NCBI GenBank assembly: GCA_964629655.1
Contig: CAZVQU010000001.1
Span: 20,788 to 84,787 of the forward strand
Direction: 5' to 3'
Origin: an uncultured Planctomycetia bacterium
GTDB taxonomy: Bacteria > Omnitrophota > Gorgyraeia > Duberdicusellales > 4484-171
DNA length: 64,000 nt
Shown: piece by piece, positions 5,497 to 57,298 of the stretch
Layout: every line of letters begins with the position of its first letter
Position numbering within the stretch: the first letter of the stretch is position 1
The notes under the pieces: model-generated
Told to the model about the DNA's origin: nothing
Database searches by the model: none
The model's input: only the letters and a program-made list of their open reading frames with translations
Position numbers and translations under genes: made by a program

Positions 5497-6636
5497 TTAC
5501 CGGGTATCGGACAAAAATTCTTTTTTAAAAACCCTGTACATCTCCTTAGCAACCACTTCATTCCCTTTCTCAAATAAATGGCAGAAATCAAGATAACATC
5601 TGTTAAAAGTATTGTCCAATATGCTTGAAGTATTGAAAAAATTTGTCAACGGCTTTCCTGCTAAGATTCCATTAACAATTGCATATAATCGACCTAATTG
5701 ATCTCCTTTACGTTTTTGATATATTTTAGTTTCTTCATTTGTTAGATTTTTTTTACTAAATAAAACTGGTTGCCAAAAACATATGTATTTAAAGCCATAT
5801 GCAATAGATAGACGATCCAAAAGGTCCTTTGACTTTACATAATATTCAATAATTCCATCCGCAAGCGAATGTAATTCTCTATTGCTATATCTTTGCCGCC
5901 GCGGTAAATAGGTAGATATTTTTTCTTTGCAGATTTTATAAATCATGCTATGTCTCTTAATTAAGTCTGCTAAATCACTCCCAAAGAAGTAAATATCCAT
6001 TAAAATATCGTTTTGCTTTATTCTTTCTAGTTTTCTTCTAATACCATGAAACGTTCCTCCCGGGATTGCAGACTGATAAGCTCCGTCAACATCGTTGGCG
6101 CCGTCATAAAAAATTACATAGTCTGGCCTATGCCCTTCTCTTAAAAGAATTATCAGATTAATAACCTCTCGTGTAAATGTATGTCCACCCTCTCCATAAT
6201 TGTAAACCAGATAATTATATTCATTATTATTGAGTAGTTTAGAAAAGTAAGACGGTATTGTGTAATCATCTCCTGCTCCTTCACCCCACAAAGACGAGCC
6301 ACCAAATATATATATTGTTTCAGCAAATCTCTTAGGGGCACCGGCTGGAAGCCAGGTTTTTCTAATTCCTTGAGAATTAATATTTACATATTTACCAACC
6401 TGCTCTTCTCTGCGCCAGCTCAGGTACTGGAGGGTATCCAATAGATTCCAGTCTATACCCGTAGATCCTTTACGATCTTCTTTTGATAGACTGGTCATAT
6501 ATTCGCTGTATTTACTTTTTTCTTTTTTTTGGACGCCTGAAATTACAAAATGTGCTATATGCAAGCAAGCCTCTACGGTAACAATAACAAGCACCGCAAC
6601 AATAAAACCAAAAAGTAGTCGTTTTCTTTTTTTCAC
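5497..6636 (-). CDS. Membrane-anchored SGNH/GDSL-family hydrolase (esterase/acyltransferase-like)
   Basis: 379 aa with an N-terminal TM helix, IFGGSSLWGEG (block I Ser), GANDVDG (block III) and DFCHL (block V DxxH). Confidence 0.5.
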   Translation of the reverse strand: MKKRKRLLFGFIVAVLVIVTVEACLHIAHFVISGVQKKEKSKYSEYMTSLSKEDRKGSTGIDWNLLDTLQYLSWRREEQVGKYVNINSQGIRKTWLPAGAPKRFAETIYIFGGSSLWGEGAGDDYTIPSYFSKLLNNNEYNYLVYNYGEGGHTFTREVINLIILLREGHRPDYVIFYDGANDVDGAYQSAIPGGTFHGIRRKLERIKQNDILMDIYFFGSDLADLIKRHSMIYKICKEKISTYLPRRQRYSNRELHSLADGIIEYYVKSKDLLDRLSIAYGFKYICFWQPVLFSKKNLTNEETKIYQKRKGDQLGRLYAIVNGILAGKPLTNFFNTSSILDNTFNRCYLDFCHLFEKGNEVVAKEMYRVFKKEFLSDTR

Positions 6637-6688: not shown

Positions 6689-7990
6689 TCAACAATCAAT
6701 TAGCAATAAATTGCTCAATCGATTACATATTTTATTAAAAATTACCTGCCTGTGGATATAATTTTGAATTTTAATTAAAAGCTTGGCTAAGGCCGGGTGC
6801 CTTCTGGATTTATTATGTAAGAATATAGCCATTTTGAATAGAAAACTTCTTTTCTTTTTTCTGCTAACGCTAAAGTAATAATCAAAATCATTTTTAAGCT
6901 TTTGTTGGTCGTTATGCGGCATGGGGACCTTTATTATTAACTTATAGTCTGGTTTCAAATATACATTTTCTATAATATTGGGTAACTTTTTTAGGAAATT
7001 CTTTTCGTTCGGTCTTATTTCTCTGTTAACTAATAAATGGACTTGCATGTTAGGTAGCTCCTTGGTCTTTTCTAAAAGAGTCATCAAAATAGAAATGGGA
7101 ATATTAATTTTAGCCGCTCCTTTCAGATGATATATGGGAAGGAAGATGCGAACTTTGCGAAAACTTTTCGATAAGTCGTAATATGCTGAGAAGTCGTCAT
7201 AAAAATTGAAAAATTGGTAAGATAAATTTAGATCATAATAGTGACTGAAGACCTTCTTTAGATTGCCGCTACTGTAAATATTTATGAAGTCAGAAACAAT
7301 AAAAATATTCCTAAATTTATTTTTGCTATATGCCTTAAGGTCGCTAATTAATTTTTCTGGGCTTCGGGAAATTAGCCCTCTTTTACATAGCGCTTCCTGC
7401 AATTTTGTATTGCCATAGCATCCACTACAATTATTATAACATCCTTTTATGGCCTGAACAAATAAATAACTAAAATTATCACACTTTTGACTTTCTTTTA
7501 AGGAAGGGAACCAATCCAAATTTACATAATTACACTTATCAAAGTCATTTTGGTCTAACTTATAGGTGAAAGGTGTAGAGAAATCTCTTGCTACGATATT
7601 TGGTATTTTTTTACAGTCTAGTCCATTAAGCAAACTACTTACCAGCACTGGAAATGAACGATCTGCATCTCCTTTAATAATATAATCACAATTAAATCTT
7701 TTTATTAATATATCTGCGAATATTGTTGCAACATATCCACCAAGAACAATTTTTGCTTCTGGATTTATCCTTTTGTATTTTTTACATAAATTATACACCT
7801 GATAAAGAGAATAGAACCAATGTAAGTCCATTGCAATGATTTTCGTATTCTCTATGTCTTTTTTCTTAACTTCAAAATAAAACATCCCCTTCTTCTTACA
7901 ATTTAGGCTATTGATTAGAGAAATGCTACCTGTTGGGACAGTTAAATGACTAGGTATTCCTGTGAAAGGGTGGCTATAAAGTACATCCAT
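6689..7990 (-). CDS. B12-binding radical SAM protein (class B rSAM)
   Basis: 433 aa; CYNNCSGC fits CxxxCxxC and is preceded by a Rossmann-like B12-binding segment (KIVLGGYVATIFADIL...IIKGDAD). Confidence 0.6.
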   Translation of the reverse strand: MDVLYSHPFTGIPSHLTVPTGSISLINSLNCKKKGMFYFEVKKKDIENTKIIAMDLHWFYSLYQVYNLCKKYKRINPEAKIVLGGYVATIFADILIKRFNCDYIIKGDADRSFPVLVSSLLNGLDCKKIPNIVARDFSTPFTYKLDQNDFDKCNYVNLDWFPSLKESQKCDNFSYLFVQAIKGCYNNCSGCYGNTKLQEALCKRGLISRSPEKLISDLKAYSKNKFRNIFIVSDFINIYSSGNLKKVFSHYYDLNLSYQFFNFYDDFSAYYDLSKSFRKVRIFLPIYHLKGAAKINIPISILMTLLEKTKELPNMQVHLLVNREIRPNEKNFLKKLPNIIENVYLKPDYKLIIKVPMPHNDQQKLKNDFDYYFSVSRKKKRSFLFKMAIFLHNKSRRHPALAKLLIKIQNYIHRQVIFNKICNRLSNLLLIDC

Positions 7991-8029: not shown

Positions 8030-8761
8030 TCAGAATTCAGCAAAGTCTCCGATGTTTTTTCCTTCAATCATCCCACCTGTAAGTTCTATCTCTGTATAAA
8101 TTTTGCTGACTGCTCCGCCGTATTCTGTAATCTCCTCGTTTTCCTTAACTTTACCTACACCTTGGGCAAGCCAAGTTGTTGTTATCACAACCATTGAAGA
8201 TCCCTTAATCTTGAGGAAAGAAAATATTACTAAACAATCTTCAAACCTTCCAGCAGGAACAGTTACGTCTTCAAACCCTTGAAATTTAATTTCGGCTGTA
8301 GCCATTCCTCTATCGACTATATTACCATCAGTATCGTAAACTACGAATGCTCTTGAGTCTTTAAATCCTTGATTCAATTGCAAATTATCAGGAAAAGCTA
8401 TTGCCGGCTGGGAGAATACGATATCCCCACCGTCTTTCGCAACTTTATGTAAGTAAATCCCCTCTTCTCCCAAGCTGTAATAGAAAATGGGGTTTCTGTC
8501 CCTGTCTCGTGTTTTGTCCATTTCTCTCTCAAGAAGATACACTTCCTTACCGTTAAGCAAATCCTTAGTTCGAATGACACTATGTATAATATGTCCAGAA
8601 GGCTTGCCCCGTCCTGTCTCAGATAGTGTATACCTCCATTCATTGCCGATTCCTATAGGAAAGTATTTTGATATTTCATAAGAATCCTCTGCTTTTAACA
8701 GCGGTTGAATTAGACAAATGGAAATACAAACTGCAAGAATGCTTAAAGCTATTTTTTTCAT
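8030..8761 (-). CDS. Secreted protein of unknown function (beta-domain family A, copy 1)
   Basis: 243 aa with signal peptide MKKIALSILAVCISICLIQPLLKA. Paralogous to 10949..11677 and to the C-terminal domain of 16921..19161 (shared YxISxYFP, PIFYYSL, VTVPAGRFEDCL, WLAQGVGKVK motifs). Confidence 0.5.
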   Translation of the reverse strand: MKKIALSILAVCISICLIQPLLKAEDSYEISKYFPIGIGNEWRYTLSETGRGKPSGHIIHSVIRTKDLLNGKEVYLLEREMDKTRDRDRNPIFYYSLGEEGIYLHKVAKDGGDIVFSQPAIAFPDNLQLNQGFKDSRAFVVYDTDGNIVDRGMATAEIKFQGFEDVTVPAGRFEDCLVIFSFLKIKGSSMVVITTTWLAQGVGKVKENEEITEYGGAVSKIYTEIELTGGMIEGKNIGDFAEF

Positions 8762-10948: not shown

Positions 10949-11677
10949 TTAATCCTTACCCCTAACCTTTTTAGTTGTTGCTTTTTTAAGTTCTTTCTCA
11001 TTATAAACTTTGTGGTATCTCCCTTCTCTATACCTAATGAGTTCTTCTTTTACTTTAACTTTGCCTATTCCATGAGCAAACCAAGCTGTTTCTTTAACAA
11101 TTAGAGTATCTCTGGATGTTGAAAATACCCATAAAAAATCAATTTTTAAGCATTTATCGAATTTTCCCGCTGGGACAACCACATCTTCAACACCCTTAAG
11201 TTTAGCCTTTGTCTCAACTGTTCCTGCATCTATTAACTTATTCTTGGCTGTGTAAACTTGTATCGATGCAGAAACACTATGTTCCCGATTCGATTGTAAG
11301 CCGTTAGGGAAAAAAAGTAGCGGAGGGGAAAATACAAGATATCTGTTCTCTTCTACCATTTGATCTAAACTGATTCCTGAATTACTAAGACTATAGTAAA
11401 AAATCGGTTTTTTATTTCGGTCGGGTTCATAAAGATACATTTCTTTTTTACCTAGCAACTTCCTAGACTTAATGCAGCTTAGGGAGTCAACAGAGTCTGT
11501 CTTTGCTTCCTGGGAAAATCCCTCTTCAACCACATACCCTTGATATGCCCAGCTATTTCCTACAATTAGCGGGAAATATTCTGATATATCATAAGGCGCT
11601 TGCGCATTTAAATATACATTGCTTAAAAGAATAATAACGCAACTAAAAAGAATGGTTAAAGTTAATCTTTTTACCAT
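10949..11677 (-). CDS. Secreted protein of unknown function (beta-domain family A, copy 2)
   Basis: 242 aa with a signal peptide and the same motifs as the 8030..8761 product (YDISEYFPLIVGNSW, PIFYYSLSNSG, VVVPAGKFDKCL, WFAHGIGKVKVKEE). Confidence 0.5.
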   Translation of the reverse strand: MVKRLTLTILFSCVIILLSNVYLNAQAPYDISEYFPLIVGNSWAYQGYVVEEGFSQEAKTDSVDSLSCIKSRKLLGKKEMYLYEPDRNKKPIFYYSLSNSGISLDQMVEENRYLVFSPPLLFFPNGLQSNREHSVSASIQVYTAKNKLIDAGTVETKAKLKGVEDVVVPAGKFDKCLKIDFLWVFSTSRDTLIVKETAWFAHGIGKVKVKEELIRYREGRYHKVYNEKELKKATTKKVRGKD

Positions 11678-12471
11678 TACTCATCTCCCTTTTCTCTTAA
11701 TAAAACCATCGCCGCTCCAATAGCTGCAGTAAATTGTGGATATTGCAATATCTTTATATCTCTCATAAATTCTTCTGTTAATGAATACAAAAGCCCTTTA
11801 TTTTGCGCGGGCCCTCCGTCTAAATAGATCTCTTCTTCAACATCTAAACTTCGCATTAAATCGGATAGCCTTCTTGCTATAGACTGATGCAATCCGGTTA
11901 TAATGTCACCTTTATTTACTTTTGCATACAAAAGGGATACTATCTCGCTTTCAACAAAAACAACGCATGTGCTATTAATGGTAACTTTTGACTGGCCTAT
12001 ATTTCCTAAATTTCCCAAATCAGAAACAGAAACACTTAATATATGCGCCGCTTTTTCCAAAAATCTGCCGGTCCCGGCTGCGCATTTGTCGTTCATTTTA
12101 AAATCCACAATTTTACCATCAGAAGAGATCTTAATAACTTTAATATCTTGCCCTCCTACATTGACAACTGTCCTTGCTGTTCCATTACTTAAATGATAAG
12201 CCCCCACGCCGATTGCTGTAATTTCGTCTACAACTCTCTCTCTATCGGGAAAAATACGTTTACCGTAACCAGTAGTAGCCACTCCTAAAATTTTTTCCTT
12301 TGACAAAGAGAGTTCTCCTAACCCCTTCATTAAAAGATTCTTTGATACCTTAGTGCTTTCAAAGGTAGCAGGAGCAACTTTTGACCAAAGCAATCTTCTC
12401 TTTTCATCAATAAAAACAACTTTAATTGCGGCTGTGCCCAAATCAACTCCTGCAGCTACCATTTCCCTCAC
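11677..12471 (-). CDS. BadF/BadG/BcrA/BcrD-type ATPase; HgdC/YjiL-like CoA-substrate-specific enzyme activase
   Basis: 264 aa: AGVDLGTAAIKVV actin-like ATPase N-terminus and the CAAGTGRFLE motif characteristic of [4Fe-4S]-bridged dehydratase activases. Confidence 0.8.
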   Translation of the reverse strand: MREMVAAGVDLGTAAIKVVFIDEKRRLLWSKVAPATFESTKVSKNLLMKGLGELSLSKEKILGVATTGYGKRIFPDRERVVDEITAIGVGAYHLSNGTARTVVNVGGQDIKVIKISSDGKIVDFKMNDKCAAGTGRFLEKAAHILSVSVSDLGNLGNIGQSKVTINSTCVVFVESEIVSLLYAKVNKGDIITGLHQSIARRLSDLMRSLDVEEEIYLDGGPAQNKGLLYSLTEEFMRDIKILQYPQFTAAIGAAMVLLREKGDE

Positions 12472-12482
12472 CCACCTTTTTA

Positions 12483-13709
12483 TTAAAGTGTTTCTTTAAA
12501 CGCCTCTAGCCTTGCTAAAATATTTTCCCTGTCTTCTTTCGAATAGTCTGTCTCAATTTTTATAAAACGAAAACCTTTTTCTTTTATTATCTTCTCATAG
12601 CTAAAGCTTTCTATATCGAACGGGTGGCAGCCTTTAAAAACATGGTAAACCACTCCTTTTATATCCTGTTCCTGCATTATTTCCAAAATGTTCTTCGCTC
12701 TATGTTCATTTTCAATAAACGTAGGGCAAGTACAGCTAAGTTGATATCTCTCTGCGATTGCTCTAAGAAGCTCATACTCTGAAGTATCATCATAAACTAC
12801 GCTGCCAAAAAGTCTCTCCGAAGTACACAAATCATCAGCGGCAATAAACATACCCACTTCCTCAATCAGCTCAGAAATCTTTAACTGAGGAAAGAATAAA
12901 GGCGAACCAAGAAGAAATATTCGAGGCTTTGTATTGCAACATAAATTATTATAGGCGCTACAGAATTCGTTTATCTTTTTTGTCCATGCCCCTGCATCAT
13001 CGAGCATAAAGGCATTGGCCAGAATTATGCTTTCTGTTCCAGAAATCAAGCCCTTACGCCTCATTTCAAGTAATTTTTCAAAGGCTTCCCAAGCTAACAT
13101 ATATTTATGGATTGAATTTAACAACTTTCTCTTATCAAGTCGCCTATTGGCACGTCTCTCTAAATATCGCTTTAATTCATATGTTTCTTCCAGCCATCTT
13201 TTCTGACTCTTTTGCGCTTCTTTAACATGAGGTAGCTCCATTATGTAAAAGTTGTAGTTTTCTTTACCCACCATCCCTGGCAGTTTAACTCTCCAGTCGC
13301 AAGATGTCGGAGTAATTAGCATCTCACATAACCCTTCTAATGATTGCTCACAATGAAACGCGCTTAAGGCAGACTTAATAAGAGGGCACGCCAAAACCGG
13401 CAAAGAAGATGATGAAAGCTTCTGTATAGCTAATGATCCACAGCACAATCGTATAGGGTGGAAACCTAGGGCATCGAGTAATTCCACTGGTACTGTATTG
13501 CAATATGTACCAACCACAGGTCTATCGAATCTTTCTTTTAATCTTTGAGGATAAGCAGCGAGTGAAAGGGTGTCAAGAAAATATTCAAATTCCTTAGAAA
13601 AAGTGCCTTTCTCTTTAAAAAAAACAATCTCTCGATTATACTCCTCAGCCATTTCCCTTTTAACCCGCTCTTGCATCCTTCGATTTAAATCACCGGGTAA
13701 ATTTAACAT
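12483..13709 (-). CDS. 2-hydroxyacyl-CoA dehydratase family protein (HgdB/YjiM-like, HGD-D)
   Basis: 408 aa with a C-terminal GVVYHVFKGCHPFDIESF region typical of the HGD-D family. AAGGAGA RBS 13 nt upstream of the ATG. Confidence 0.65.
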   Translation of the reverse strand: MLNLPGDLNRRMQERVKREMAEEYNREIVFFKEKGTFSKEFEYFLDTLSLAAYPQRLKERFDRPVVGTYCNTVPVELLDALGFHPIRLCCGSLAIQKLSSSSLPVLACPLIKSALSAFHCEQSLEGLCEMLITPTSCDWRVKLPGMVGKENYNFYIMELPHVKEAQKSQKRWLEETYELKRYLERRANRRLDKRKLLNSIHKYMLAWEAFEKLLEMRRKGLISGTESIILANAFMLDDAGAWTKKINEFCSAYNNLCCNTKPRIFLLGSPLFFPQLKISELIEEVGMFIAADDLCTSERLFGSVVYDDTSEYELLRAIAERYQLSCTCPTFIENEHRAKNILEIMQEQDIKGVVYHVFKGCHPFDIESFSYEKIIKEKGFRFIKIETDYSKEDRENILARLEAFKETL

Positions 13710-13760
13710 TGCTACTTATTTCTCCTTTTAAACCATTCAAAAAAATATTTTTGTGAATAC
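13692..13760. repeat. 68-bp duplicated leader element, copy 1 (RBS plus first 6 codons of the hgdB-like gene and about 50 bp upstream)
   Basis: About 96% identical to 15043..15112; on the minus strand it contains the AAGGAGA RBS and ATGTTAAATTTACCCGGT. Confidence 0.8.
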
Positions 13761-13777
13761 CTTAATACAAACATTCT

Positions 13778-14938
13778 TTATTCCGCTAAATGATAGTTCT
13801 TTCCAAGATACTCGGCTAAGTATTCTCCAATAACTCGATGGCTGAATTCATTTAAGTGAGTATCTATTTCAAAAAATAATGAATTAAAACTCGAAGCTCG
13901 ATCTAAAATAGTAACTAAATCTAGATGGGAAATATTCAGAGTGTGGCAGAAATTAACAATATATTCCTCTAACTCCTTCTTGCTATATTCCACCACTAAA
14001 AGTGGTACTTTGTGGCTATCACAAAGCTCTTTATATTGTTTAAGGAGAAGGAATATTAATTTCTGGAAATATTTTTTTTTATATTTTTTTCGCTCTTGCA
14101 CTATAGACTGCTGTTTCTCGGAAATACCCTTCCACCGTTCCTTATCTCTTTCTTCCAAGCTCATCTTGACCCTCTTATGAAATATACTATAATTCAATAG
14201 AGACAATAACCTGCTTTTTCCAAAAATAGCCCCTTTGGCCCATTTGCCTGCGTTTTTTAGAGATACTTTAAGTGCATCATTATTTTTTTGGCTACCCAAT
14301 GCATCTTTAACAAAATCTACATCTTGCAATATGAGCTTAGTTTCATCTTCGTTAAGAACAAATCTCGGTTTGAATGCACCCCAGGGAGTTATAAAATCGC
14401 TGCTTCGCTCAAGAAAATAATCAGATACAAATAATACGACTAAATCTGGATTATATCTAAATCCATCTTTTTTTAGCTGCAATAGTGACTGGCCAATCCC
14501 GAATCCCGAAATTCCCATATTTACCACTTCTACATGTTCCAAAGATTGCTCGATTATGTCCGTAAAGCGCTGGCCATAATTTATACCCCACCCAAGCACA
14601 GTGGATTCACCTAAGGCAATTATCCTGAATTCTTGGGCAGGCTTCTGGAAAGGAATCTCTTTATCTCTTATACCTTGAGAATTTATAGAATAAACAACAT
14701 CGAAATCTGAAGTAATAACGCGGTCTTTCACATAAGGCTTTAATTTCCACCCCAGGTATTTATCAAACCTTGGTGCGCTATGGTAATGTCTCAACATAGA
14801 TTCCATATATTCTATTTTTTCATCTAATTTCGTTCTCTTTATGTATCTATCAGCGGCTACTTCTGCAATTACAGCACCTATAAATAATCCTGCGATTACA
14901 AGGAGTACCTTACGGAAAGATTGTTTTGCCTTCACCAC
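13778..14938 (-). CDS. Membrane-anchored SGNH/GDSL-family hydrolase (second copy)
   Basis: 386 aa with an N-terminal TM helix, IIALGESTVLGWG block I and DTHLNEFSH block V. Confidence 0.5.
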   Translation of the reverse strand: MVKAKQSFRKVLLVIAGLFIGAVIAEVAADRYIKRTKLDEKIEYMESMLRHYHSAPRFDKYLGWKLKPYVKDRVITSDFDVVYSINSQGIRDKEIPFQKPAQEFRIIALGESTVLGWGINYGQRFTDIIEQSLEHVEVVNMGISGFGIGQSLLQLKKDGFRYNPDLVVLFVSDYFLERSSDFITPWGAFKPRFVLNEDETKLILQDVDFVKDALGSQKNNDALKVSLKNAGKWAKGAIFGKSRLLSLLNYSIFHKRVKMSLEERDKERWKGISEKQQSIVQERKKYKKKYFQKLIFLLLKQYKELCDSHKVPLLVVEYSKKELEEYIVNFCHTLNISHLDLVTILDRASSFNSLFFEIDTHLNEFSHRVIGEYLAEYLGKNYHLAE

Positions 14939-15042
14939 TATGCACCCATATCGATTTTTTTAAAATACAATAGTAAAACACTGTTAAGCAAATAATAAAA
15001 CCCTTCTTTCTTAACCTTTTTCTGTATTTTTCTTTTCATTCT

Positions 15043-15112
15043 ACCGGGTAAATTTAACATTGCTACTTATTTCTCTTTTTAAACCATTCAAAAAAATATT
15101 TTTTTGAAGAGG
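15043..15112. repeat. 68-bp duplicated leader element, copy 2 (overlaps the 3' end of the polyferredoxin CDS, upstream of the SGNH gene)
   Basis: Same sequence with one substitution (RBS becomes AAGAGA) and a poly-T length change; it supplies the last 13 codons of 15063..16043. Confidence 0.8.
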
Positions 15113-16043
15113 AAAAGATGTTTTTTCTCAAAAATTTAAGAGACAGCGTTTTATTTTGGGAGCATGCCTCTATACATTTTAGACAAAGAATGCAACCGTC
15201 TTCAGTGACATTGTCTTTTTTTTTCTCTAAATAAACTTCTTTTATATCCATTGGGCACACCCGCCAACAATTCCCACAACTTGTGCAAGAGTTTATTTTC
15301 TTCTTAAGTTGTAAGAAGCTTGCCTTGTTGAATACATCAATAAGAACGCCGACTGGACATAAGATACAAAAAAAGCGTTCTCGAAAAACTATTCCTACAA
15401 AAACTGCTCCTGCAATAACCGATGTAGCTATGCTTGTCCAAAATCTCCCTAAACCAACAGTAAAATCGACTCCTATATTCAAAGGATTCCCCTCAAACAA
15501 AGGAAGAAATGTCTTGACAGGGCATATACGGCAATAAATCGGGTCGAGTTCTCTAACTCCACATGCCAAAAGCACATAAATACTTAGGAAGCTTAAAAGT
15601 AGTACATATTTAAGAATGTTTAGGCCACTTTTTGTTTTCTCGGAAAATTGTGTTTCCCTTACAGAGAGCTTCTTTCTTGCAAAAGTGACTCCATCTTGAA
15701 GTGTTCCAAACGGACATATCCATCCGCACCAAATTTTATTGAAAATAAGAACCACTAAAAAGAAACCTAAAAACAAACGCAAATATGCCCCTGCCCATCC
15801 CCACATAACGGTGTATCCGGGAAAAGGCAGCATCCCTCTCTCCTCCTCCTGAGGATCCATCCTTATCCCATATTGAGAGCGCTGCAAAGGCAATAAATAG
15901 CAGCCACTGCCATGATAACTGTCATTATTAAGACATTGAGTGCCGGGCAAAAAATTATTAAATCGCAAGCCAATATAGCCTCCGTAGATTAAAAGCAGAA
16001 AACATAAAATTTGAATTAGGTAACGAAATCTATAAACTTTCAT
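15063..16043 (-). CDS. Membrane-bound polyferredoxin, NapH/MauN/CcoG-like 4Fe-4S binding protein
   Basis: 326 aa with TM helices plus CGWICPFG, CRICPV, CILCPVG motifs and two ferredoxin motifs (CTSCGNCWRVCP; CILCLKCIEAC). Confidence 0.65.
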   Translation of the reverse strand: MKVYRFRYLIQILCFLLLIYGGYIGLRFNNFLPGTQCLNNDSYHGSGCYLLPLQRSQYGIRMDPQEEERGMLPFPGYTVMWGWAGAYLRLFLGFFLVVLIFNKIWCGWICPFGTLQDGVTFARKKLSVRETQFSEKTKSGLNILKYVLLLSFLSIYVLLACGVRELDPIYCRICPVKTFLPLFEGNPLNIGVDFTVGLGRFWTSIATSVIAGAVFVGIVFRERFFCILCPVGVLIDVFNKASFLQLKKKINSCTSCGNCWRVCPMDIKEVYLEKKKDNVTEDGCILCLKCIEACSQNKTLSLKFLRKNIFSSSKKYFFEWFKKRNK

Positions 16044-16924
16044 TATAACTTAAATCTCTTTCTTGTTACGATGGCAACGAGGGATACGATAACCAGCGAA
16101 GACATAAAAATGCTAACACCTAATCTTAAGTTTATGTCTCTACCCCTTGTTGCAATATGTTCTGAGTGTTTAAATGAAATAGTATAAGAACCTTTAAAAA
16201 TGGAGTCGCCTAAAACACGTTCAACTATGATTAAATCCTGTCTCCGTTCCTTATCTCCCTGTGGAATATAAGAAAAACTATCCACTACGCCCGTCTCTAC
16301 TTGTTGGTTTTTTCCGTTATCGCCGATTATATTTATATTTTTACAATCGAAAGGGATTTTATCAAAATTTACCGAGAACCCTATTGGATAACCTAATCTT
16401 CGGTAAAAAGTATTATCCTCCTTTGCTCGTTCCCTGTGAATATTTATTTCCAATTGCCTTTTAAAAGGGTTATTTAAAGTATTTCCCTTTGCATTATTCA
16501 AGATTGAGTCGTTGCCAAGAATAAAGAAAGACGTCTTAGCAAGATAATTATACTCTAATCCCCGCTCTGATTTAGCCATCTTTACCAAGACAGCACACCA
16601 GCGTTCCCTATCTGAATTAACTCTAATGCGGGCCCTTTTCTCTCCTTTTACAATATTTAATTTGTAAAAAATATCTTCTCCTCTTTTATTTTTTTCTCCA
16701 AAAGTATAAGCGGCTTCAATATTATCTAATCCCTCAATGCTTTTCTTTCTATCGGGGAATTGTCCATAACAAACAAAGAGATGTTGTGTCGCCATATCAC
16801 TTTTATTCCCTGCCTCATCATCATACTCTAGCCAAATGTAATCGTCCTTAGAAAAATCGGCATAGGCTATGCTGGCACTTAAATAGAGAGGTAAAACTAT
16901 GAAAATAAATAAAATATTTTTCAT
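16043..16924 (-). CDS. Exported protein with C-terminal membrane anchor, unknown function
   Basis: 293 aa with an N-terminal signal peptide and a C-terminal hydrophobic helix followed by RKRFKL. Confidence 0.4.
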   Translation of the reverse strand: MKNILFIFIVLPLYLSASIAYADFSKDDYIWLEYDDEAGNKSDMATQHLFVCYGQFPDRKKSIEGLDNIEAAYTFGEKNKRGEDIFYKLNIVKGEKRARIRVNSDRERWCAVLVKMAKSERGLEYNYLAKTSFFILGNDSILNNAKGNTLNNPFKRQLEINIHRERAKEDNTFYRRLGYPIGFSVNFDKIPFDCKNINIIGDNGKNQQVETGVVDSFSYIPQGDKERRQDLIIVERVLGDSIFKGSYTISFKHSEHIATRGRDINLRLGVSIFMSSLVIVSLVAIVTRKRFKL

Positions 16925-19161
16925 TTTTTAGCAACTATTTCTTTGAGTTCGAGAACCTCAACAAAAGAATTATTGTAACGATTCATAATATTTTTTTCTT
17001 CAGGTATCATATATTCTGTATTCATAAAAGGAATATGTGTGTGGATAGTCTTAACATGGCCTATTTTTGCAGCAATCCAAAAATTATAAATATGCATAAG
17101 CTTACCCTTCCCAAGCTCATCTTTATAAACATGCCTTGCTAAGAAATGAAGACATTTGAATTTTCCTGCCTCAACAGTTATTTCTTCTTTACCTATAAAT
17201 GAAATTTCTGCCTCTATTTTTTCCTTACCAATAAGTTTGCCGTCGTAATCAAAAATCGATTGAATAGTAGAAAATGTAATGTCTTCTTTAAGTTTCGAGG
17301 GTATTAACAAAAGTGGTGGGGAAAACTCTCTAATTACTTTTAACGGGACTTCTCCTACCAGATGCTTATTTCTGTAAAACATTACTCCTTGAGAAGTTAG
17401 TTTTCTTGTCTGGATTCTATCGTTATATTCCCCCTGGAAGAGCAAGTCGAATTGTTTTCCGGATTCCATTTGCTGAACATTCTTGATACTTACGGTTACT
17501 ATATTGCTTCTGTTATCCTCAAGATGACTATATACATATTCAACATCTTCATCCAAAGGAAAATATTCAAAAACAGAGTAGGCATCTTTTGACATTGACC
17601 CCTCTATGAAATGTAATGCTTCTTCGTTTCCATTTTGTGTATAGTCTTTTTTCAACAATAGCCACCCGTCTTCAAAGGCAACAACGCCATAGCTATCCTG
17701 TATTATAGCATGTTTTAATTTCGAATAATACTTTGTTTCGCTTAAATTGTAATAAGAATGAGTATATAAATCGACAAATATGTAATCCCATTCGTAGTAT
17801 TTCTCTATAACATGTTTATCAAATAGCCCAAAATACTTGCACCTGCCTAAATGCGGTACCAAAAATTCTGGAGCTAGACAACTTGCCTGATCAGGAATCA
17901 TTTTTAGAAACTTATGCCCAATCCGGGCATGTTTAGTTAACTTATAATCTTTGAAACTAAAGCCCTGGGTAAATGGTAAAGGCCCTAAGTTTTCAGAAAA
18001 ATTACTTTTTGGCTGAACATAGTAATGCTGAAGCAAGACTGGGACCAAGATAAACGTGGCTAATAGATTATGAAGTAACTTTCTGCTATTTTTATATTTA
18101 AAAAAAGCTTTATCTATAAAATCGATAATCCTTCCCGCCCCATATATGGCACCTGCAAAGACAAAAGCCAAGATTAAGAAATGTCCTGAGGAATGTTGGT
18201 TTCTAAGGAGAATATAGCCCGCCTCGGCAATAACTGGTAGAAGATACAGAGGGCTAAAGAAAACAAAGATATTAGGCAAACGAGAAAAAATGTAAATTAA
18301 CATATTGCCCTCATTGAACATATTCTTCATAATCAATATGGGATGGAACAAGGCATATCGCAAAGCATCAATTAGGCTATCTCCATACTGTACAAAATGG
18401 ACCATGCCTACCGGAAAAGGCCTGTTAATTAGCTTAAGGTAAACAGAACATGCGGTTATTGCAATTATCAACCAGATAAGGCTAATTTTTAATATCGCTT
18501 TTCCGTATCTTTTTCTCTCTTTAGAAAAAAGAAGAATTATACCTAAAACTAGAGTCATCAGCACAGCATCAATTTTAGATAGATTGGCCAAAATAATAAA
18601 AATAATGAATTTCTTAAAATCTCCCTTTTCGAGATAATAAAAAGCGAACAAGAGAAATGGTAAAGCTAAAGCAAGGGGTATGTATCCAAGCACTGCGCCT
18701 GTGGTTACGATTGGATGCAACAAATATGCAAGAGAGAATGTAACTGCCAGATAAGCACTATCCAGGCGTTTTTTTGTAAGTAGATACACGGGTAAAGCCC
18801 CGCTTGCTAAAAAAACGCTCTGAAAAACAAGCAATGCCTCCGGCCGGGGAAAAAGCCTATAAATAAAGGCAAGGAGGTAATTGAGGGGACTGGAGAAAAT
18901 AAGTACAGCACTATACTCCGGCAATCTAAGAACATCAAAAGGACTAACTCCTGCAGCCAATTTTGGGTATATATGTGTATATGCCCAGCCAAAGCTAGTT
19001 TGAGAAAAACTTCCAAATTTAAAAATATTAATAAGAGAAAAAAATATGATAAATATCCCAGAAGCTATAAGCACTATAGCTAATCCGAAATTACCTATTT
19101 TTTTATGATGGCTTGAAATAACCATGCTGAAGCGCAGTAATATCTTCTTACCTATTCTCAA
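16921..19161 (-). CDS. Polytopic membrane protein (paralog A) fused to a C-terminal secreted family-A beta-domain
   Basis: 746 aa. Residues from about 92 to 507 are encoded by a 1248-bp block 100% identical to one in 22914..24503. The C-terminal part carries ITVEAGKFKCLHF and WIAAKIGHVK, the motifs of secreted family A. Confidence 0.5.
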   Translation of the reverse strand: MRIGKKILLRFSMVISSHHKKIGNFGLAIVLIASGIFIIFFSLINIFKFGSFSQTSFGWAYTHIYPKLAAGVSPFDVLRLPEYSAVLIFSSPLNYLLAFIYRLFPRPEALLVFQSVFLASGALPVYLLTKKRLDSAYLAVTFSLAYLLHPIVTTGAVLGYIPLALALPFLLFAFYYLEKGDFKKFIIFIILANLSKIDAVLMTLVLGIILLFSKERKRYGKAILKISLIWLIIAITACSVYLKLINRPFPVGMVHFVQYGDSLIDALRYALFHPILIMKNMFNEGNMLIYIFSRLPNIFVFFSPLYLLPVIAEAGYILLRNQHSSGHFLILAFVFAGAIYGAGRIIDFIDKAFFKYKNSRKLLHNLLATFILVPVLLQHYYVQPKSNFSENLGPLPFTQGFSFKDYKLTKHARIGHKFLKMIPDQASCLAPEFLVPHLGRCKYFGLFDKHVIEKYYEWDYIFVDLYTHSYYNLSETKYYSKLKHAIIQDSYGVVAFEDGWLLLKKDYTQNGNEEALHFIEGSMSKDAYSVFEYFPLDEDVEYVYSHLEDNRSNIVTVSIKNVQQMESGKQFDLLFQGEYNDRIQTRKLTSQGVMFYRNKHLVGEVPLKVIREFSPPLLLIPSKLKEDITFSTIQSIFDYDGKLIGKEKIEAEISFIGKEEITVEAGKFKCLHFLARHVYKDELGKGKLMHIYNFWIAAKIGHVKTIHTHIPFMNTEYMIPEEKNIMNRYNNSFVEVLELKEIVAKK
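17641..18888. repeat. 1248-bp perfect direct repeat, copy A (inside CDS 16921..19161)
   Basis: 100% identical to 22971..24218 (offset 5330 bp) in every line compared; flanks diverge abruptly. Confidence 0.9.
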
Positions 19162-20336
19162 TATTTGAATATTTCTCCGGAAATAATTTCTTCTATAAAC
19201 TTATTATAATTATTAGCATTTTTTTGCTTGTACTCAGAATTTATTTTGACAGCTTTTTCTGCTATTTTTCTACAATAATTGCAATCTTCGCAGGATTTAT
19301 AACGGCATTTTTCATTAAAAAAATGTTCTATAAAACCGTCTAATTTTGTGTTATCTATGCATACACCCACATCCGTCAGCATATTTTTCCTATTAATCAG
19401 CTTAAAAATATTTACAGTAAAAGGGTGGAAGAAATGTTTAAACTTATGAAAGAGATTTGGCTTTTGAAGCCAAAGGCTTTTTGAGGAATTAATAAATAAA
19501 TCGTATAAATTGCCTCTATACTCTCTCTTTAAATAGGCACCCACAATAAACGCAATGGCTTCCGTAGTCATATGCCTATCTACAACTTTAAATCTTTCTA
19601 TACCTATACTCTCATAAACAGAAATATCTTCCGGTCTTATCCATGTTGCACGAATAAAATTTGCCGGTTCGGCAATCATCATGTTTCTGCACATAAACCG
19701 ACAATAATCAAACATAAAGCTGCCCAGCTTGCCCGAAGTTTGGGAAGCATGCGAAGTAATATTATTGTGATAAAAAAAGAAAGGACAGTCTTGAATACAA
19801 TCATCATTCACAATAAGCTGCAATTCACATCTTACATTTTCCTTAATGCTCTTTAATAACTTAAAATCGCGCGTTAATTGAGTCTGAGGTAAAGTTATTG
19901 TTGAAGCGCCTAGCTCTTCCCAAAATTTTGCTTTCATTACAGAATTGACATGGGCAAAACAAGAAACTGAAAGTTCAAAATGCGAATAATGCTTTTTTAC
20001 CAACTGGGCGAGATAAGGGGTTGCTGCCACAACTCCGTCTACCTTAATCTCAGATAACCAATTTAACAGCCTATGCAATTTTTTCTGACCAGCCCTGGTG
20101 AACTCCTGACCCCCCATGCAAGATGTATTTAAGAGGTAATAAAACTTCAAACCGCTTTTGTGGATTTCGGATATATGTCTTTTTGCTTTCTTTTTTGTTA
20201 CTTTCAAGGATATACATGACGGCCTTCCTCCACCTGCAAAATCTCTATCCAGTTTCCCATAGACTGTATCTACGTTTGGTTTCTTTATCTTTTCAATCAA
20301 ATCACTCTGCCAGTTTGTAGGAACGGTCAATTTCAT
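19158..20336 (-). CDS. Cys-rich protein, possibly peptidase U32 family-like (tentative)
   Basis: 392 aa; N-terminus MKLTVPTNW...LIEKIKK...VDTVYGKL resembles U32 N-terminal TIM-barrel starts, with several Cys clusters (CIQDCPFF, CRFMC, CEDCNYC). Paralog of 21821..22876. Confidence 0.3.
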   Translation of the reverse strand: MKLTVPTNWQSDLIEKIKKPNVDTVYGKLDRDFAGGGRPSCISLKVTKKKAKRHISEIHKSGLKFYYLLNTSCMGGQEFTRAGQKKLHRLLNWLSEIKVDGVVAATPYLAQLVKKHYSHFELSVSCFAHVNSVMKAKFWEELGASTITLPQTQLTRDFKLLKSIKENVRCELQLIVNDDCIQDCPFFFYHNNITSHASQTSGKLGSFMFDYCRFMCRNMMIAEPANFIRATWIRPEDISVYESIGIERFKVVDRHMTTEAIAFIVGAYLKREYRGNLYDLFINSSKSLWLQKPNLFHKFKHFFHPFTVNIFKLINRKNMLTDVGVCIDNTKLDGFIEHFFNEKCRYKSCEDCNYCRKIAEKAVKINSEYKQKNANNYNKFIEEIISGEIFKY

Positions 20337-21811
20337 ATTTTTTTCCTTATCTTTGCGCGTCCTTTATTTTTCAATCCGCCAATAGCCCCCTTGAGCAACA
20401 TCGAAAATAGCCATATAGATCCGTACAAAAGATTCTTAAAGGTAACTGTCCGTTTCAAAATATGACGGATAATAGCCTTTGGTTGCACATATACCTGAAA
20501 CATAGCTTTTCTCTGTAGGCGTCTGAGAGTGGCGCTATCTAATCCGTCAGGACAATAAACAAGATCGCCGCCAGCCGATGTCCAATCACACCAGCTGGTA
20601 AATTTCTCCGGTTCACCTATATCATTATTTTTAATGTAATCTTCAAAGAATTTAGACCCTGGATAAGGAACAGCTATGTTAAATTTTACTATATCGCATT
20701 CTAAATCCTTAGCAAATTTTATTGTATCATTGCAGGTATCCACAGTTTCTCCCGGAAGACCAAGCATAAACAAGCCCAAACTTAATATTCCCGCTTTTTT
20801 TGTTTCCCGCAAAGCCGTCCTCGCTTGATCCAATGTCGTTCCTTTATTAATGCTTTTAAGAATCTTCTCATTGCCAACTTCTATGCCATACATAATAAGA
20901 TGCAAACCTGCTTCTTTCATTGCTCTTAATAACTTTGGAGTTACTTTATCAACCCTTGTTTCTGTGCACCAGTTAAGTTTTTTATGTAGTTTGCGCTTTA
21001 TCAAGATATCGCAAAATTCTAATCCGGATTTCTCGTCAAAAGGGAAATAGGCATCGGATAGACCAAAATATTTTATATTAAGATTTTCAAAGAAATACTC
21101 CATTTCGTCAACAACCTTGTTTAAATTCCGATAGCGCATCTTGGGATATACCTTATCCTGTGAGCAATAATAACATTTGTAGGCGCAGCCTCGCGATGCC
21201 ATTATTGGTACTGCCCGGGCTTTAGTTATCGCTGCCAACGGAACTTCCCTGTAATCATCTAAATTTAGCATGTCCCAAGCGGGAAAGCTTAAACTATCAA
21301 GGTTCTCGATAATTTCACGCCGGGGATTGTGTCTTATTCCGTTTGCGGTACGGAAACTAATTCCAGATATCTCTTCTAAACTCCCGCCGTGGATAAGGCA
21401 AGTGCTCAGTTCCAGCATAGCGATCTCTCCCTCTCCCCTTACAACAATATCCGCTGTATTATCGCTAAGTACTTCTTCAGGAAAACAAGTAGCATGAGTG
21501 TTGCCTAACACAATTCTGCTATCGATCTTTGAGTCACGCATCTGCCGAACTAACCTTCTTATATCCGGCATAACCGGAGTAAGTGCGGAAAATCCCACTA
21601 TAACCGGTTTCTCCTTTTTAATTAAGTCTATAAGCTCATCGTCAGTAGTTTTTCTCGCGAACTGGTCGACAACCGAAACCTTTACGCCGTTACTTCGCAA
21701 GGTAGCGGCAATATAACATAAACCAAGTGGCGCAATAGGAGTGAGAAACTTTTTATATCCCCAGCTATTTTCTATTAAACTCGAATTAGGATTTATTAAA
21801 AGGACTTCCAT
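20333..21811 (-). CDS. B12-binding radical SAM protein
   Basis: 492 aa: B12-binding domain (RIVLGNTHATCFPEEVL...VVRGEGE) followed by RGCAYKCYYC, which fits CxxxCxxC. Confidence 0.8.
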   Translation of the reverse strand: MEVLLINPNSSLIENSWGYKKFLTPIAPLGLCYIAATLRSNGVKVSVVDQFARKTTDDELIDLIKKEKPVIVGFSALTPVMPDIRRLVRQMRDSKIDSRIVLGNTHATCFPEEVLSDNTADIVVRGEGEIAMLELSTCLIHGGSLEEISGISFRTANGIRHNPRREIIENLDSLSFPAWDMLNLDDYREVPLAAITKARAVPIMASRGCAYKCYYCSQDKVYPKMRYRNLNKVVDEMEYFFENLNIKYFGLSDAYFPFDEKSGLEFCDILIKRKLHKKLNWCTETRVDKVTPKLLRAMKEAGLHLIMYGIEVGNEKILKSINKGTTLDQARTALRETKKAGILSLGLFMLGLPGETVDTCNDTIKFAKDLECDIVKFNIAVPYPGSKFFEDYIKNNDIGEPEKFTSWCDWTSAGGDLVYCPDGLDSATLRRLQRKAMFQVYVQPKAIIRHILKRTVTFKNLLYGSIWLFSMLLKGAIGGLKNKGRAKIRKKI

Positions 21812-21820
21812 CTGGTTTCC

Positions 21821-22876
21821 TTAAGCCTCTTCAAGAACTTTACTAACTTCCTTTAGCAAATATTCTTTCTTTTTTTCATCAATTGAAATTCTTTTATCAT
21901 CTACGTAAAATACATTTTTAGTAGTATAAATTCTTAATAACGATTTAATATGTTTTTCTCTTGAAAGTACTTTAAAAATCTCTTTGGGGTATAAGAAATG
22001 TAAATATTTAAAACTGTTTCTAATGACCGCTTCTGACAATAATCCTAATAAAATTCTAATAAGGGAAGAATACTTACTTTCTAATACTGAAGTGTTTATC
22101 AATCTAAGGCAATTTCCCTTACAGTTTTTCTGAGAATAAGCTGTCACACAATTGACAACCCACTGGGTAGGCTTGGTCCTGCCGGCTATTTTTAAAAAAT
22201 CAACGCCAAGTCTTTCGTATGTTTCTATTTTATTTGGATGGATAAAGCCGGTTCTTCTAACTATTGAAGAGGGGTCGTCTAATTTTAATTTTAAACATTT
22301 TACTATTTCTTTTCCAAAATAATCTGTCTTCTTGAGGTGTTCTTCTTCGTAAGGGCAATTCACTAAGCAAATGTTATTCGCCAGAATCTTTATCTGCAAT
22401 CCTGTCTTCTTTCTCAAAAGCTCAATGAAGTTAAGGTCGTTCTTCTTGCCATAATCTACGCAAAGGATGTCACAGCCTAGGTTCTTATAGAACATTGCTC
22501 TTTCAATAGAATCAATCCTGCAAGCAATGGAACTGCAGATTTTAAACCGATGATTTTTCTTTAAAAATGAAATTACATCCGGATTAGAAGCAGTTACCAT
22601 ATCTACGCTTATTCCACTGAGCTCTTTTAAAAAAGCAATCCTTCTTCCATCTAAGGTGAAGTTTGGATGGTTCATTATATAATTAAATTTAATACCCCGG
22701 GCATGGGAATATTCTATATATTTCTTCAATCTTTCCATACTAACCTTAGGCAAAGCATAAGAAGGCAAGACAGTCTCGCCGGGGTCGTGATTTAAACTGC
22801 CATATGTATCGTGGATTCTGCCTTTTAATCTGTCGATAAGTTCAAAATTGAAATTTGTAGGTGCTGATATCTGCAT
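21821..22876 (-). CDS. Paralog of 19158..20336 (U32-like, tentative)
   Basis: 351 aa; MQISAPTNFNFELIDRLKGRIHDTYGSL aligns with the N-terminus of the 19158 product. Confidence 0.3.
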   Translation of the reverse strand: MQISAPTNFNFELIDRLKGRIHDTYGSLNHDPGETVLPSYALPKVSMERLKKYIEYSHARGIKFNYIMNHPNFTLDGRRIAFLKELSGISVDMVTASNPDVISFLKKNHRFKICSSIACRIDSIERAMFYKNLGCDILCVDYGKKNDLNFIELLRKKTGLQIKILANNICLVNCPYEEEHLKKTDYFGKEIVKCLKLKLDDPSSIVRRTGFIHPNKIETYERLGVDFLKIAGRTKPTQWVVNCVTAYSQKNCKGNCLRLINTSVLESKYSSLIRILLGLLSEAVIRNSFKYLHFLYPKEIFKVLSREKHIKSLLRIYTTKNVFYVDDKRISIDEKKKEYLLKEVSKVLEEA

Positions 22877-36654: not shown

Positions 36655-37065
36655 TTATCTTGTCCTTAATTTACCTCTTAGAATGTCTTTTATCTCCAGG
36701 ATTAACTTCTCCTTGTCAGAATCTAGATGTTCTTCGAGCTTCGGCGGTAACGCGGCAAATACATCCTCGGCATCAATATGATTTTCAAATTTTTCATAGG
36801 CTAAGCTCATGGTTTTGGCTACAATTTCAGCAAGACTCGGCAATAAATAATCTCTGATTTCCTGATCACTTAATTCAAATAGGGGGAACTCTTGAGGGTA
36901 CATAACTTCATTCATAGCATCCTGAAAGGCATCGATGATCTCTCTTTCACTAACAGCCTGGGCATACCCCTTAGGTCCAACCAGACAAATTAGCCCTACA
37001 ATAACTATCCCCAGCATCACCTTTCTGTTTAATTTAAACATTTTCCACCTCCCTTTTTTTGCCAT
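36655..37065 (-). CDS. Small exported or membrane-anchored protein, unknown function
   Basis: 136 aa with an N-terminal hydrophobic segment (VMLGIVIVGLICLVGPKGYAQA) and an acidic remainder. Confidence 0.35.
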   Translation of the reverse strand: MAKKGRWKMFKLNRKVMLGIVIVGLICLVGPKGYAQAVSEREIIDAFQDAMNEVMYPQEFPLFELSDQEIRDYLLPSLAEIVAKTMSLAYEKFENHIDAEDVFAALPPKLEEHLDSDKEKLILEIKDILRGKLRTR

Positions 37066-57293: not shown

Positions 57294-57298
57294 TGGTA

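Follow-up and report, generated by a model that had tools for sequence, protein, structure and literature searches.

An uncultured Omnitrophota bacterium carries, within a locus of glycan and B12-dependent radical-SAM genes, a four-gene redox module whose family belongs to the cobalamin (vitamin B12) regulon across bacteria. The module lies in a 64,000-nucleotide stretch of DNA, hereafter the window (GenBank assembly GCA_964629655.1, contig CAZVQU010000001.1, positions 20,788 to 84,787), where it spans positions 11677-16924 (Table 1). In order of transcription, its genes encode a secreted or periplasm-facing protein that we call X, a NapH-like membrane polyferredoxin, a reductase subunit of the HGD-D family resembling the double-cubane-cluster protein DCCP, and an ATP-dependent activase. 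We read the module, at a probability of about 0.5, as a reductase of the B12 regulon that is driven by ATP and coupled to the membrane, and that was recruited to supply or reduce corrinoid for the eight or nine B12 enzymes of this locus. A first-pass annotation had proposed that the activase, the HGD-D protein and the NapH-like protein form a low-potential electron-delivery module. All three genes stand where it had placed them, on the minus strand. It had put the NapH-like gene three genes off, whereas a single gene separates it from the HGD-D gene, and in taking the unit as three genes it had missed the fourth conserved member, X.

Gene neighbourhoods define this unit. Around homologues of 45-65% identity we invariably found a ~300-residue unannotated gene followed by NapH-like, DCCP-like and activase genes. 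A single-protein scan of genome contigs recovered no loci, but an alignment-driven scan with one genome per species yielded 80 further ones, and a tblastn survey then covered 83. Among these, the NapH-like gene immediately precedes the DCCP gene in 82 (the remaining one is cut off by a contig end), and the activase gene is directly downstream of the DCCP gene in 78. An open reading frame (ORF) of X type, which begins with a signal-like stretch and ends in a hydrophobic helix followed by a basic tail, directly precedes the NapH-like gene in 70. These adjacency counts uphold the proposal that activase, HGD-D and NapH-like proteins are a genuine functional unit. Judged from record titles, the carriers fall into about ten phylum-level groups: Omnitrophota, Desulfobacterota (many), Spirochaetota, Negativicutes (including Sporomusa ovata DSM 2662), Synergistota/Synergistaceae, Planctomycetota/Planctomycetaceae, Acidobacteriota, Dehalococcoidales, Betaproteobacteria (Accumulibacter) and Victivallaceae. 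Start and stop codons of X and NapH-like genes, and of NapH-like and DCCP genes, overlap in several loci, suggesting a stoichiometric complex.

Cobalamin riboswitches and B12 genes accompany the module widely. Of the first six loci scanned with Rfam, five have a match to RF00174 or RF01482 in coding orientation immediately before the module, and further cobalamin riboswitches precede neighbouring TonB receptor, btuR, nrdD and RACo genes. A covariance model built from Rfam riboswitch matches and run on 84 sources (1.3 Mb) gave 68 matches. By Rfam and this model together, 41 of 65 evaluable loci have a cobalamin riboswitch ahead of the module: no more than 450 bp from the X start in 21, followed by a TonB-dependent receptor and then X in 13, and followed by other genes and then X in 7. 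The other 24 have none despite at least 2.5 kb of upstream sequence; a further 16 loci have too little upstream sequence to judge, and two glycan-type loci are riboswitch-free. TonB receptors adjoining or co-transcribed with the module matched TonB-B12/BtuB best in six of six cases tested (169-340 bits, below the equivalog cut-off of 600). Genes for CbiB, CobQ, CobT, CobU, CobS, BtuR and BtuFC-like proteins surround the module in Omnitrophota and other loci, and a riboswitch-less Synergistaceae metagenome-assembled genome (MAG; L056) encodes a BtuF-CbiZ fusion and a 1369-residue CobN directly upstream of X. A riboswitch or B12 gene marker is present in 39 of the 56 non-glycan loci of at least 12 kb, or 45 of 56 when BtuB-like receptors are counted.

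Riboswitch control by itself could be explained in another way. B12 riboswitches also govern B12-independent isozymes, and one locus (L011) has an nrdD gene with its own riboswitch a few kb away. The module might be a B12-independent substitute reductase that, like metE or nrdD, is turned on when B12 is scarce, or a reductase of small molecules such as N2O- or cyanide-like compounds that damage B12; the characterised DCCP does reduce acetylene, azide and hydrazine (PMC7317905, PMC9351452). We regard this as highly improbable: it leaves unexplained the co-transcription with BtuB-like receptors, the B12 salvage neighbours, the periplasmic X and the recruitment to a locus rich in B12 enzymes.

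Two further features of the Omnitrophota loci concern the composition of these B12 operons. Three of them (L006, L008 and L016) have, between riboswitch and module, genes for a prepilin-type N_methyl/SBP_bac_10 protein and a PilZ protein, a pair that is unexpected in a B12 operon. As a constant feature, the Omnitrophota B12 salvage clusters contain a Diphthami_syn_2 (PF01902) ATP-pyrophosphatase-like gene, usually beside btuF. We know of no role in B12 metabolism assigned to it.

The DCCP-like protein of the window has 408 residues, of which 70-408 match the HGD-D family (PF06050) with 238.6 bits. Among NCBIfam models it scores highest with NF040772 ("double-cubane-cluster-containing anaerobic reductase"), reaching 246.9 bits compared with 77 for HadC and 53 for BzdN; this score misses the equivalog cut-off of 350. 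The top structural matches were likewise DCCP of Carboxydothermus hydrogenoformans (PDB 6ENO/7YYL, 153 bits), with BzdN at 58, HadC at 55 and MbdN at 38 bits. Judged by sequence, the protein is a sister lineage of characterised DCCP and not an equivalog. Seven DCCP cysteines were found opposite those of 6ENO (C70, C89, C108, C137, C295, C328 and C361). They are spaced X18, X18, X28, X157, X32 and X32, slightly below the published motif CX19CX18-19CX29CX166-170CX32-34CX32C, which holds six ligands of the [8Fe-9S] cluster (PMC7317905). Across 24 relatives, C70, C108, C137, C295, C326/C328 and C361 are invariant, and the six corresponding cysteines of the window protein are predicted to ligate an [8Fe-9S] cluster; C89, the seventh and non-ligand cysteine, is kept in the window and lost in distant members.

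These matches identify the HGD-D protein as a relative of DCCP and YjiM (26% identity to Escherichia coli YjiM) rather than a dehydratase, and it sides with them and not with the fermentation dehydratases in the comparison that the first-pass annotation had called for. We rejected a dehydratase or benzoyl-CoA reductase identity on the weak scores, the single subunit and the absence of CoA genes. Pfam annotation covered all 48 window ORFs of at least 150 residues; as the first-pass annotation had it, just one of them encodes an HGD-D protein and none belongs to acyl-CoA metabolism. The physiological role of DCCP was stated to be unknown in papers of 2020, 2022 and 2025 (PMC7317905, PMC9351452, PMC11971306).

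The activase gene follows 11 bp downstream. Its 264-residue product matches TIGR00241 ("acyl-CoA dehydratase activase") in NCBIfam with 212.2 bits against a cut-off of 125.4, and Pfam BcrAD_BadFG (PF01869) with 148 bits; its structural matches are HadI (4EHT, 178 bits), HgdC (1HUX, 152) and DCCP-R (7YYL_E, 133). The ASKHA phosphate and adenosine motifs are present (DLGT, GGQD and GGPAQN), and the motif CAAGTGRFLE begins at residue 130. The protein has two cysteines in all, C130 within this motif and C169, both opposite cysteines in the 4EHT alignment. DCCP-R likewise has two conserved cysteines, C115 and C152, as cluster ligands (PMC9351452), and by analogy C130 and C169 are predicted to bridge one [4Fe-4S] cluster in an activase dimer. 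The activase of the DCCP family loads an electron onto the double-cubane cluster of its partner (PMC9351452), and characterised activases in general pass the electron to the double-cubane or catalytic cluster of their own HGD-D partner rather than to free third proteins (PMC7317905, PMC9351452).

The NapH-like protein (326 residues) has two Fer4_5 stretches (63 bits) and a C-terminal 2x[4Fe-4S] ferredoxin domain. Hydropathy gives four hydrophobic segments with Cys-Pro motifs at the helix ends; together with charge, it suggests an inside N-terminus, with loops 1 and 2 on the outer side. Across the family 18 cysteines are conserved, arranged as CxxCP..C..C in loop 1, CX3CP after helix 2, CxxCP in loop 2, CxxCP after helix 4 and two ferredoxin motifs. 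In the window these comprise C106x3C110P, C171x2C174P, C226x2C229P, C253-C263 and C284-C294. The loop-1 cysteines at positions 34 and 43 are missing, while four loop-1 cysteines are conserved in 68-70 of 75 relatives; glycan-type loci L004 and L020 and riboswitch-type Omnitrophota loci L008 and L016 lack the same two. The best NCBIfam match is NapH, far under the cut-offs (NF007013, 73 bits against 234; TIGR02163, 67 against 213), and nap genes are absent among the annotated window ORFs; we therefore rejected NapH proper. NapH-like proteins are proposed transmembrane electron conduits, and PepSY-like conduits recur beside secreted DUF4198 proteins (PMC8238504).

X has 293 residues; a signal peptide opens the chain, and a transmembrane anchor with a basic tail closes it. 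Its stop codon overlaps the NapH-like start, and its own start lies within the end of the upstream gene. It evolves fast: a word-indexed protein search found merely 2 and then 5 relatives, and an exhaustive hidden Markov model (HMM) search was needed to retrieve 112 cluster representatives among 1.84 billion proteins (E <1e-3). The window protein has no Pfam or NCBIfam match. An AlphaFold2 (AF2) model from a 71-sequence alignment (predicted local distance difference test (pLDDT) 85, predicted template-modelling score (pTM) 0.81; a model from only 5 sequences had pLDDT 31 and was not usable) comprises a signal helix, two beta-sandwich domains and a C-terminal transmembrane helix. Its top whole-chain PDB match is 9gcb_A, a Ni-bound DUF4198 protein (probability 1.00, TM 0.39/0.50), and DUF4198 (PF10670) is the most frequent Pfam match among the relatives, although a weak one (6 of 71, best E 5e-4). 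X is thus predicted to have a DUF4198-like fold. DUF4198 proteins are periplasmic metal-capture proteins that use a histidine triad and bind metals such as Zn and Ni (PMC12663993). Alignments of 28 and 71 X sequences contain no invariant or near-invariant His, Cys, Asp or Glu column, and the Zcp-type triad (H29/H31/H142) has no counterpart in the X family.

The predicted fold of X raises the possibility that the module acquires cobalt (or nickel) ions, with X capturing the metal in the periplasm, as DUF4198 proteins do, and the redox chain reducing it or freeing it from an inert, TonB-delivered complex. Cobalt transporters are classic members of the B12 riboswitch regulon. In two loci the neighbours point the same way: the module of L047 is flanked by a DUF4198 gene and a heavy-metal ATPase, and that of L056 by CobN. 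Moreover, the DUF4198 family binds Zn, Ni and Co (PMC12663993), and clusters of PepSY-like conduits and DUF4198 proteins are tied to extracytosolic metal reduction (PMC8238504). We nevertheless consider this reading unlikely. No invariant His, Cys, Asp or Glu is available in X to build a metal site, the TonB receptors match BtuB best, and in many loci the B12 genes are limited to late or salvage ones and BtuFC-like ones. An ATP-driven double-cubane reductase, in addition, should not be required for free cobalt or for typical Co(III) chelates.

In the corrinoid mechanism that we favour, the activase dimer would take up an electron on its bridging [4Fe-4S] cluster, and ATP hydrolysis would push this electron onto the [8Fe-9S] double cubane of the DCCP-like protein. 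The NapH-like protein would tether the system to the membrane via its cytoplasmic ferredoxin domain and Cys-Pro motifs, and would either give electrons to the activase or carry them from the double cubane toward the outer face. Electrons could accordingly run from NapH-like protein to activase, double cubane and substrate, or from activase to double cubane, NapH-like protein and outer face. Both orders are possible because the double cubane of BzdN works as a relay or store, a cofactor for electron transfer and storage operating below -600 mV (PMC11971306). X would hold incoming cargo at the outer face; the cargo would most likely be a corrinoid and the chemistry most likely the reduction of Co(II) to Co(I), which would precede adenosylation or methylation. 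To our knowledge, this reduction is the sole B12-related step that needs an ATP-boosted electron below -500 mV, and we favour it for that reason and for the precedent of RACo/RamA, which pay for it in ATP. Riboswitch repression implies that the product of the module enlarges the usable B12 pool, which fits uptake, salvage or a step before adenosylation better than the repair of loaded enzymes. One Omnitrophota copy would have lost its riboswitch and joined a giant glycan-tailoring operon, and the copy in the window would be expressed along with eight or nine radical-SAM enzymes that bind B12, loading or re-reducing their cofactor. The family assignments, the four-gene order, the riboswitch and B12 neighbours and the placement of one clade in the glycan locus are observed; the substrate, the direction of electrons through the NapH-like protein and the role of X are what we infer from these comparisons.

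Several observations weigh against this mechanism. About a third of evaluable loci are riboswitch-less: the 24 show none within 2.5-10 kb upstream, and Rfam agreed in the 16 that we re-scanned as a check on misses by the covariance model. The riboswitch is also absent from the window and the other glycan-type loci scanned, so that the B12 link is indirect here. Glycan-type X proteins lack the motifs YWPQTG and HRSR, which are conserved elsewhere in the family, and the window NapH-like protein lacks two loop cysteines; given these losses, the copy in the window may have changed partner. Sporomusa sp. KB1 (L012) already has a RACo-type ATP-dependent corrinoid reductase homologue, encoded with a CbiK-domain gene under its own riboswitch directly upstream of the module riboswitch. 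The riboswitch-less module of a Schwartzia MAG (L047) has a genuine DUF4198 gene (140 bits) immediately before X and a heavy-metal P-type ATPase gene nearby. The DUF4198-like fold predicted for X is known for binding metal ions (Zn, Ni) rather than tetrapyrroles (PMC12663993). In the solved DCCP, the substrate channels are so narrow that not even a CoA ester would fit (PMC7317905); reduction of a corrinoid, larger again, would need a relay or a different surface. No experiment is known to link a DCCP with corrinoids.

We found the module inside a B12-radical-SAM glycan locus in one Omnitrophota clade alone, comprising the window, L093, L004 and L020; the closest relative is L093/L094 (X 77% and DCCP 81% identical). 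Neighbour-joining on concatenated DCCP, NapH-like and activase sequences from 74 loci, without bootstrap, groups the four glycan-type modules in a single clade with long branches, whose sister is the riboswitch-type modules of Omnitrophota. This placement suggests that a B12-regulon module was recruited into the glycan operon once. A metagenome scan anchored on a U32 protein of the locus gave nothing in its single-protein version but worked when based on an alignment, adding four looser loci. Checked for co-occurrence, the trio of the first-pass annotation is kept in every syntenic glycan/radical-SAM locus found (L004/L005, L020=L095 and L093/L094); no syntenic locus lacked it, and the HGD-D protein did not fall among the fermentation dehydratases. 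In these four looser loci, which have the U32/B12-radical-SAM/U32 arrangement (L099-L102, 42-46% identity), the module was not seen within 3-10 kb on each side of the U32 gene, which indicates that it is not obligatory in such clusters.

The locus is rich in radical-SAM and B12 sites. The ~14 radical-SAM sites that the first-pass annotation had counted were recovered as domains, one by a weak match; of its nine cobalamin sites, eight stand as B12-binding-domain matches, one weak, and a ninth is possible. The module might feed low-potential electrons to the [4Fe-4S] clusters of the ~14 radical-SAM domains, with the ferredoxin-type domain of the NapH-like protein distributing them. It is embedded and kept in all four syntenic radical-SAM/glycan loci, and no other ferredoxin, flavodoxin or suitable oxidoreductase was seen among the annotated window ORFs. 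Radical-SAM clusters, however, are normally reduced by flavodoxin or ferredoxin with no ATP boost. Some 79 of 83 module loci have no radical-SAM cluster and lie instead in a context of B12 uptake and salvage, the sequence around the U32 gene in L099-L102 contains no module, and characterised activases serve only their cognate HGD-D partner (PMC7317905, PMC9351452). We judge such a supply role distinctly unlikely. Of the dedicated reductant supply that the first-pass annotation had envisaged, the reductive activation of cobalamin survives best, in keeping with the family context, and a general supply to radical-SAM clusters is unsupported.

The divergence of the glycan clade admits one more alternative, namely that its module has switched jobs and, with no B12 role, reduces a glycan intermediate or sends electrons outward for envelope-glycan tailoring. 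The long branches, the loss of X motifs, of two of the four NapH-like loop-1 cysteines and of the riboswitch, the inserted SGNH esterase gene, and the surrounding DUF2079, PMT_2 and DUF3108-like envelope proteins would all suit such a change. Against it, the ligand residues of DCCP and activase are all retained, the riboswitch-type loci L008 and L016 miss the same two loop cysteines, and the B12 demand of the locus is unusually high, giving the ancestral function an obvious use. A wholesale change of job therefore seems to us a poor bet, and corrinoid supply or reduction remains our preferred reading of the glycan-type copies.

Table 1. Position of the module genes, of other features of the window and of features in related loci
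Feature	Sequence	Position	Strand	Basis
Activase, HgdC/HadI/DCCP-R-type ATP-dependent electron-transfer ATPase ("archerase")	window	11677-12471	minus	TIGR00241, BcrAD_BadFG
DCCP-like (YjiM-type) HGD-D family reductase subunit	window	12483-13709	minus	HGD-D, NF040772, PDB 6ENO/7YYL
SGNH/GDSL-like esterase, outside the ancestral module	window	13778-14938	minus	weak Lipase_GDSL_2 and LA_2490-family matches
NapH-like integral membrane polyferredoxin	window	15063-16043	minus	Fer4_5, Fer4 dicluster families
Gene X, secreted/periplasm-facing, C-terminally anchored, predicted DUF4198-like fold	window	16043-16924	minus	AF2 model, structure match, synteny
Paralogue of the SGNH/GDSL-like gene	window	5497-6636
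433-residue protein with a weak B12-binding-domain match alone	window	6689-7990
DUF3108-like (three) and DUF2079 (two) proteins or domains	window	8030-8761; 10949-11677; 16921-19161 (C-terminus); 22914-24503
U32 / B12-radical-SAM / U32 triad	window	19158-20336; 20333-21811; 21821-22876
843-residue fusion of a radical-SAM/SPASM unit and a B12-radical-SAM unit	window	37065-39596
1299-residue protein with three radical-SAM plus SPASM repeats	window	43039-46938
Two neighbouring tRNA genes	window	57205-57382	minus	Rfam
Riboswitch, prepilin-type N_methyl/SBP_bac_10 protein, PilZ protein, then module	L006	6663-8173
The same arrangement	L008	6727-8174
The same arrangement	L016
Diphthami_syn_2 gene	L006	13520-14239		PF01902
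Diphthami_syn_2 gene	L008	12153-12851		PF01902
Diphthami_syn_2 gene	L010	3875-4537		PF01902
RACo-family and CbiK-domain genes	L012	3588-6506
DUF4198 gene	L047	6938-7924
BtuF-CbiZ fusion and CobN genes	L056	2004-8160

The module genes lie within a long run of densely packed minus-strand genes of ~36% GC. Pfam content of the window includes glycosyltransferases, PMT_2, two DUF2079 proteins, a polysaccharide deacetylase, a Wzm/Wzt-like ABC-2 exporter and two U32-family proteins. An Rfam scan of the whole window at gathering level gave two tRNAs only and no riboswitch; the tRNA genes sit amid housekeeping genes (SmpB, inositol monophosphatase and M48 peptidase), past the upstream end of the glycan operon.

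The SGNH/GDSL-like gene interrupts the reductase module in this genome alone; no such gene separates NapH-like from DCCP-like in L093/L094, in L004 or in any other locus. We take it as an insertion, because the four module genes are contiguous in the closest relative, L093/L094. It is a distant paralogue of another window gene (25% identity over 166 residues, E 3e-5).

Further genes of the locus call for mention. Metagenome loci L095 and L099-L102 repeat the U32/B12-radical-SAM/U32 triad, with identities of 42-66%. Because oxygen-independent hydroxylases are among the members of the U32 family, the triad may be a hydroxylation or methylation unit for the glycan. Two radical-SAM proteins have unusual architectures, one with three radical-SAM plus SPASM repeats and one that fuses a radical-SAM/SPASM unit to a B12-radical-SAM unit. 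DUF3108-like and DUF2079 proteins or domains recur through the locus, and directly upstream of gene X a DUF2079 protein is fused to a DUF3108-like domain. The 433-residue protein with a B12-binding-domain match has no radical-SAM domain and might be either a corrinoid protein that works alone or a B12-radical-SAM enzyme that has degenerated.

The components of the module resemble known systems, each of which differs from it in composition. Closest is the DCCP/DCCP-R pair of C. hydrogenoformans (CHY_0487/0488; 6ENO, 7YYL), also an ASKHA [4Fe-4S] ATPase with a single seven-cysteine HGD-D protein. Identity to this DCCP is ~30%, the cysteine spacing differs slightly and the equivalog cut-off is missed; the published descriptions consulted name the reductase as its sole partner, whereas the window pair is coupled to a NapH-like protein and a DUF4198-like X, and its relatives to a B12 riboswitch. 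E. coli YjiL/YjiM is likewise an orphan activase with a single seven-cysteine HGD-D protein and no acyl-CoA genes nearby. Its neighbours are yjiN, ytiA, yjiK and mdtM, none annotated as NapH-like, DUF4198-like or B12-related, and YjiM lacks a ~60-residue N-terminal extension present in the window protein.

RACo and RamA (RACE) share the proposed job, the ATP-driven reduction of corrinoid Co(II) to Co(I), and are also ASKHA-type ATPases with an Fe-S cluster. They are single polypeptides with [2Fe-2S] and have neither a double-cubane partner nor membrane or periplasmic parts, so that the analogy is functional only. BzdNOPQ and the 2-hydroxyacyl-CoA dehydratases draw on the same ATPase and HGD-D superfamilies, and the BzdN double cubane is a relay or store. 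They are heterodimers of two HGD-D subunits with a CoA-ester site, in contrast to the one HGD-D gene of the window, its 55-58-bit matches to this group and the absence of CoA metabolism.

On the membrane side, NapH, NosR, PceC and CcoG have Fer4_5 Cys-Pro motifs at helix ends, a cytoplasmic 2x[4Fe-4S] domain and a proposed role in passing electrons between cytoplasm and periplasm (PMC8238504). The window has neither nap, nos, rdh or cco genes nor an FMN-binding domain, and the module family adds the loop-1 CxxCP..C..C motif (half lost in the window) and replaces CX3CP with CxxCP variants. PepSY-like systems and Zcp offer the nearest overall layout: an outer-membrane receptor, a secreted DUF4198-fold protein, a membrane redox protein and metal- or cofactor-responsive control. 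In the module the conduit is NapH-like, control is by a cobalamin riboswitch rather than Fur or Zur, X has no histidine triad and a cytoplasmic, ATP-driven double-cubane reductase is attached.

The component families and the biochemistry of DCCP and its reductase are already known; new is a membrane-coupled DCCP system of the B12 regulon with a riboswitch-free copy in a glycan locus. A full-text literature search found no link of DCCP- or HgdC-like genes to NapH-like partners or cobalamin riboswitches, although its coverage was incomplete and an earlier description is possible. At its broadest, the finding could be that of an unrecognised and widespread ATP-driven system for the reductive handling of corrinoids at the cytoplasmic membrane, which would serve B12 salvage as its missing anaerobic Co(II)-to-Co(I) reductase or as a step of reductive import. 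That would give DCCP its first physiological function and make the riboswitch-free glycan copy a case of in-locus cofactor activation; we hold this larger claim only tentatively, as a possibility that is more doubtful than the reading of the module itself.

DCCPs are nitrogenase-like, ATP-driven reductases, and one large clade of them is now tied to membrane and periplasmic partners. The B12 riboswitch, BtuB-like receptors and salvage genes found with it in several phyla give this clade a concrete context that can be tested, and carriers that can be cultured, such as Sporomusa ovata and Desulfospira joergensenii, make genetics and biochemistry feasible. The module bears on the source of the very-low-potential electron for Co(I) corrinoid in anaerobic B12 metabolism. 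In the window, it points to a means by which an operon encoding eight or nine B12-dependent radical-SAM enzymes may secure working cofactor.

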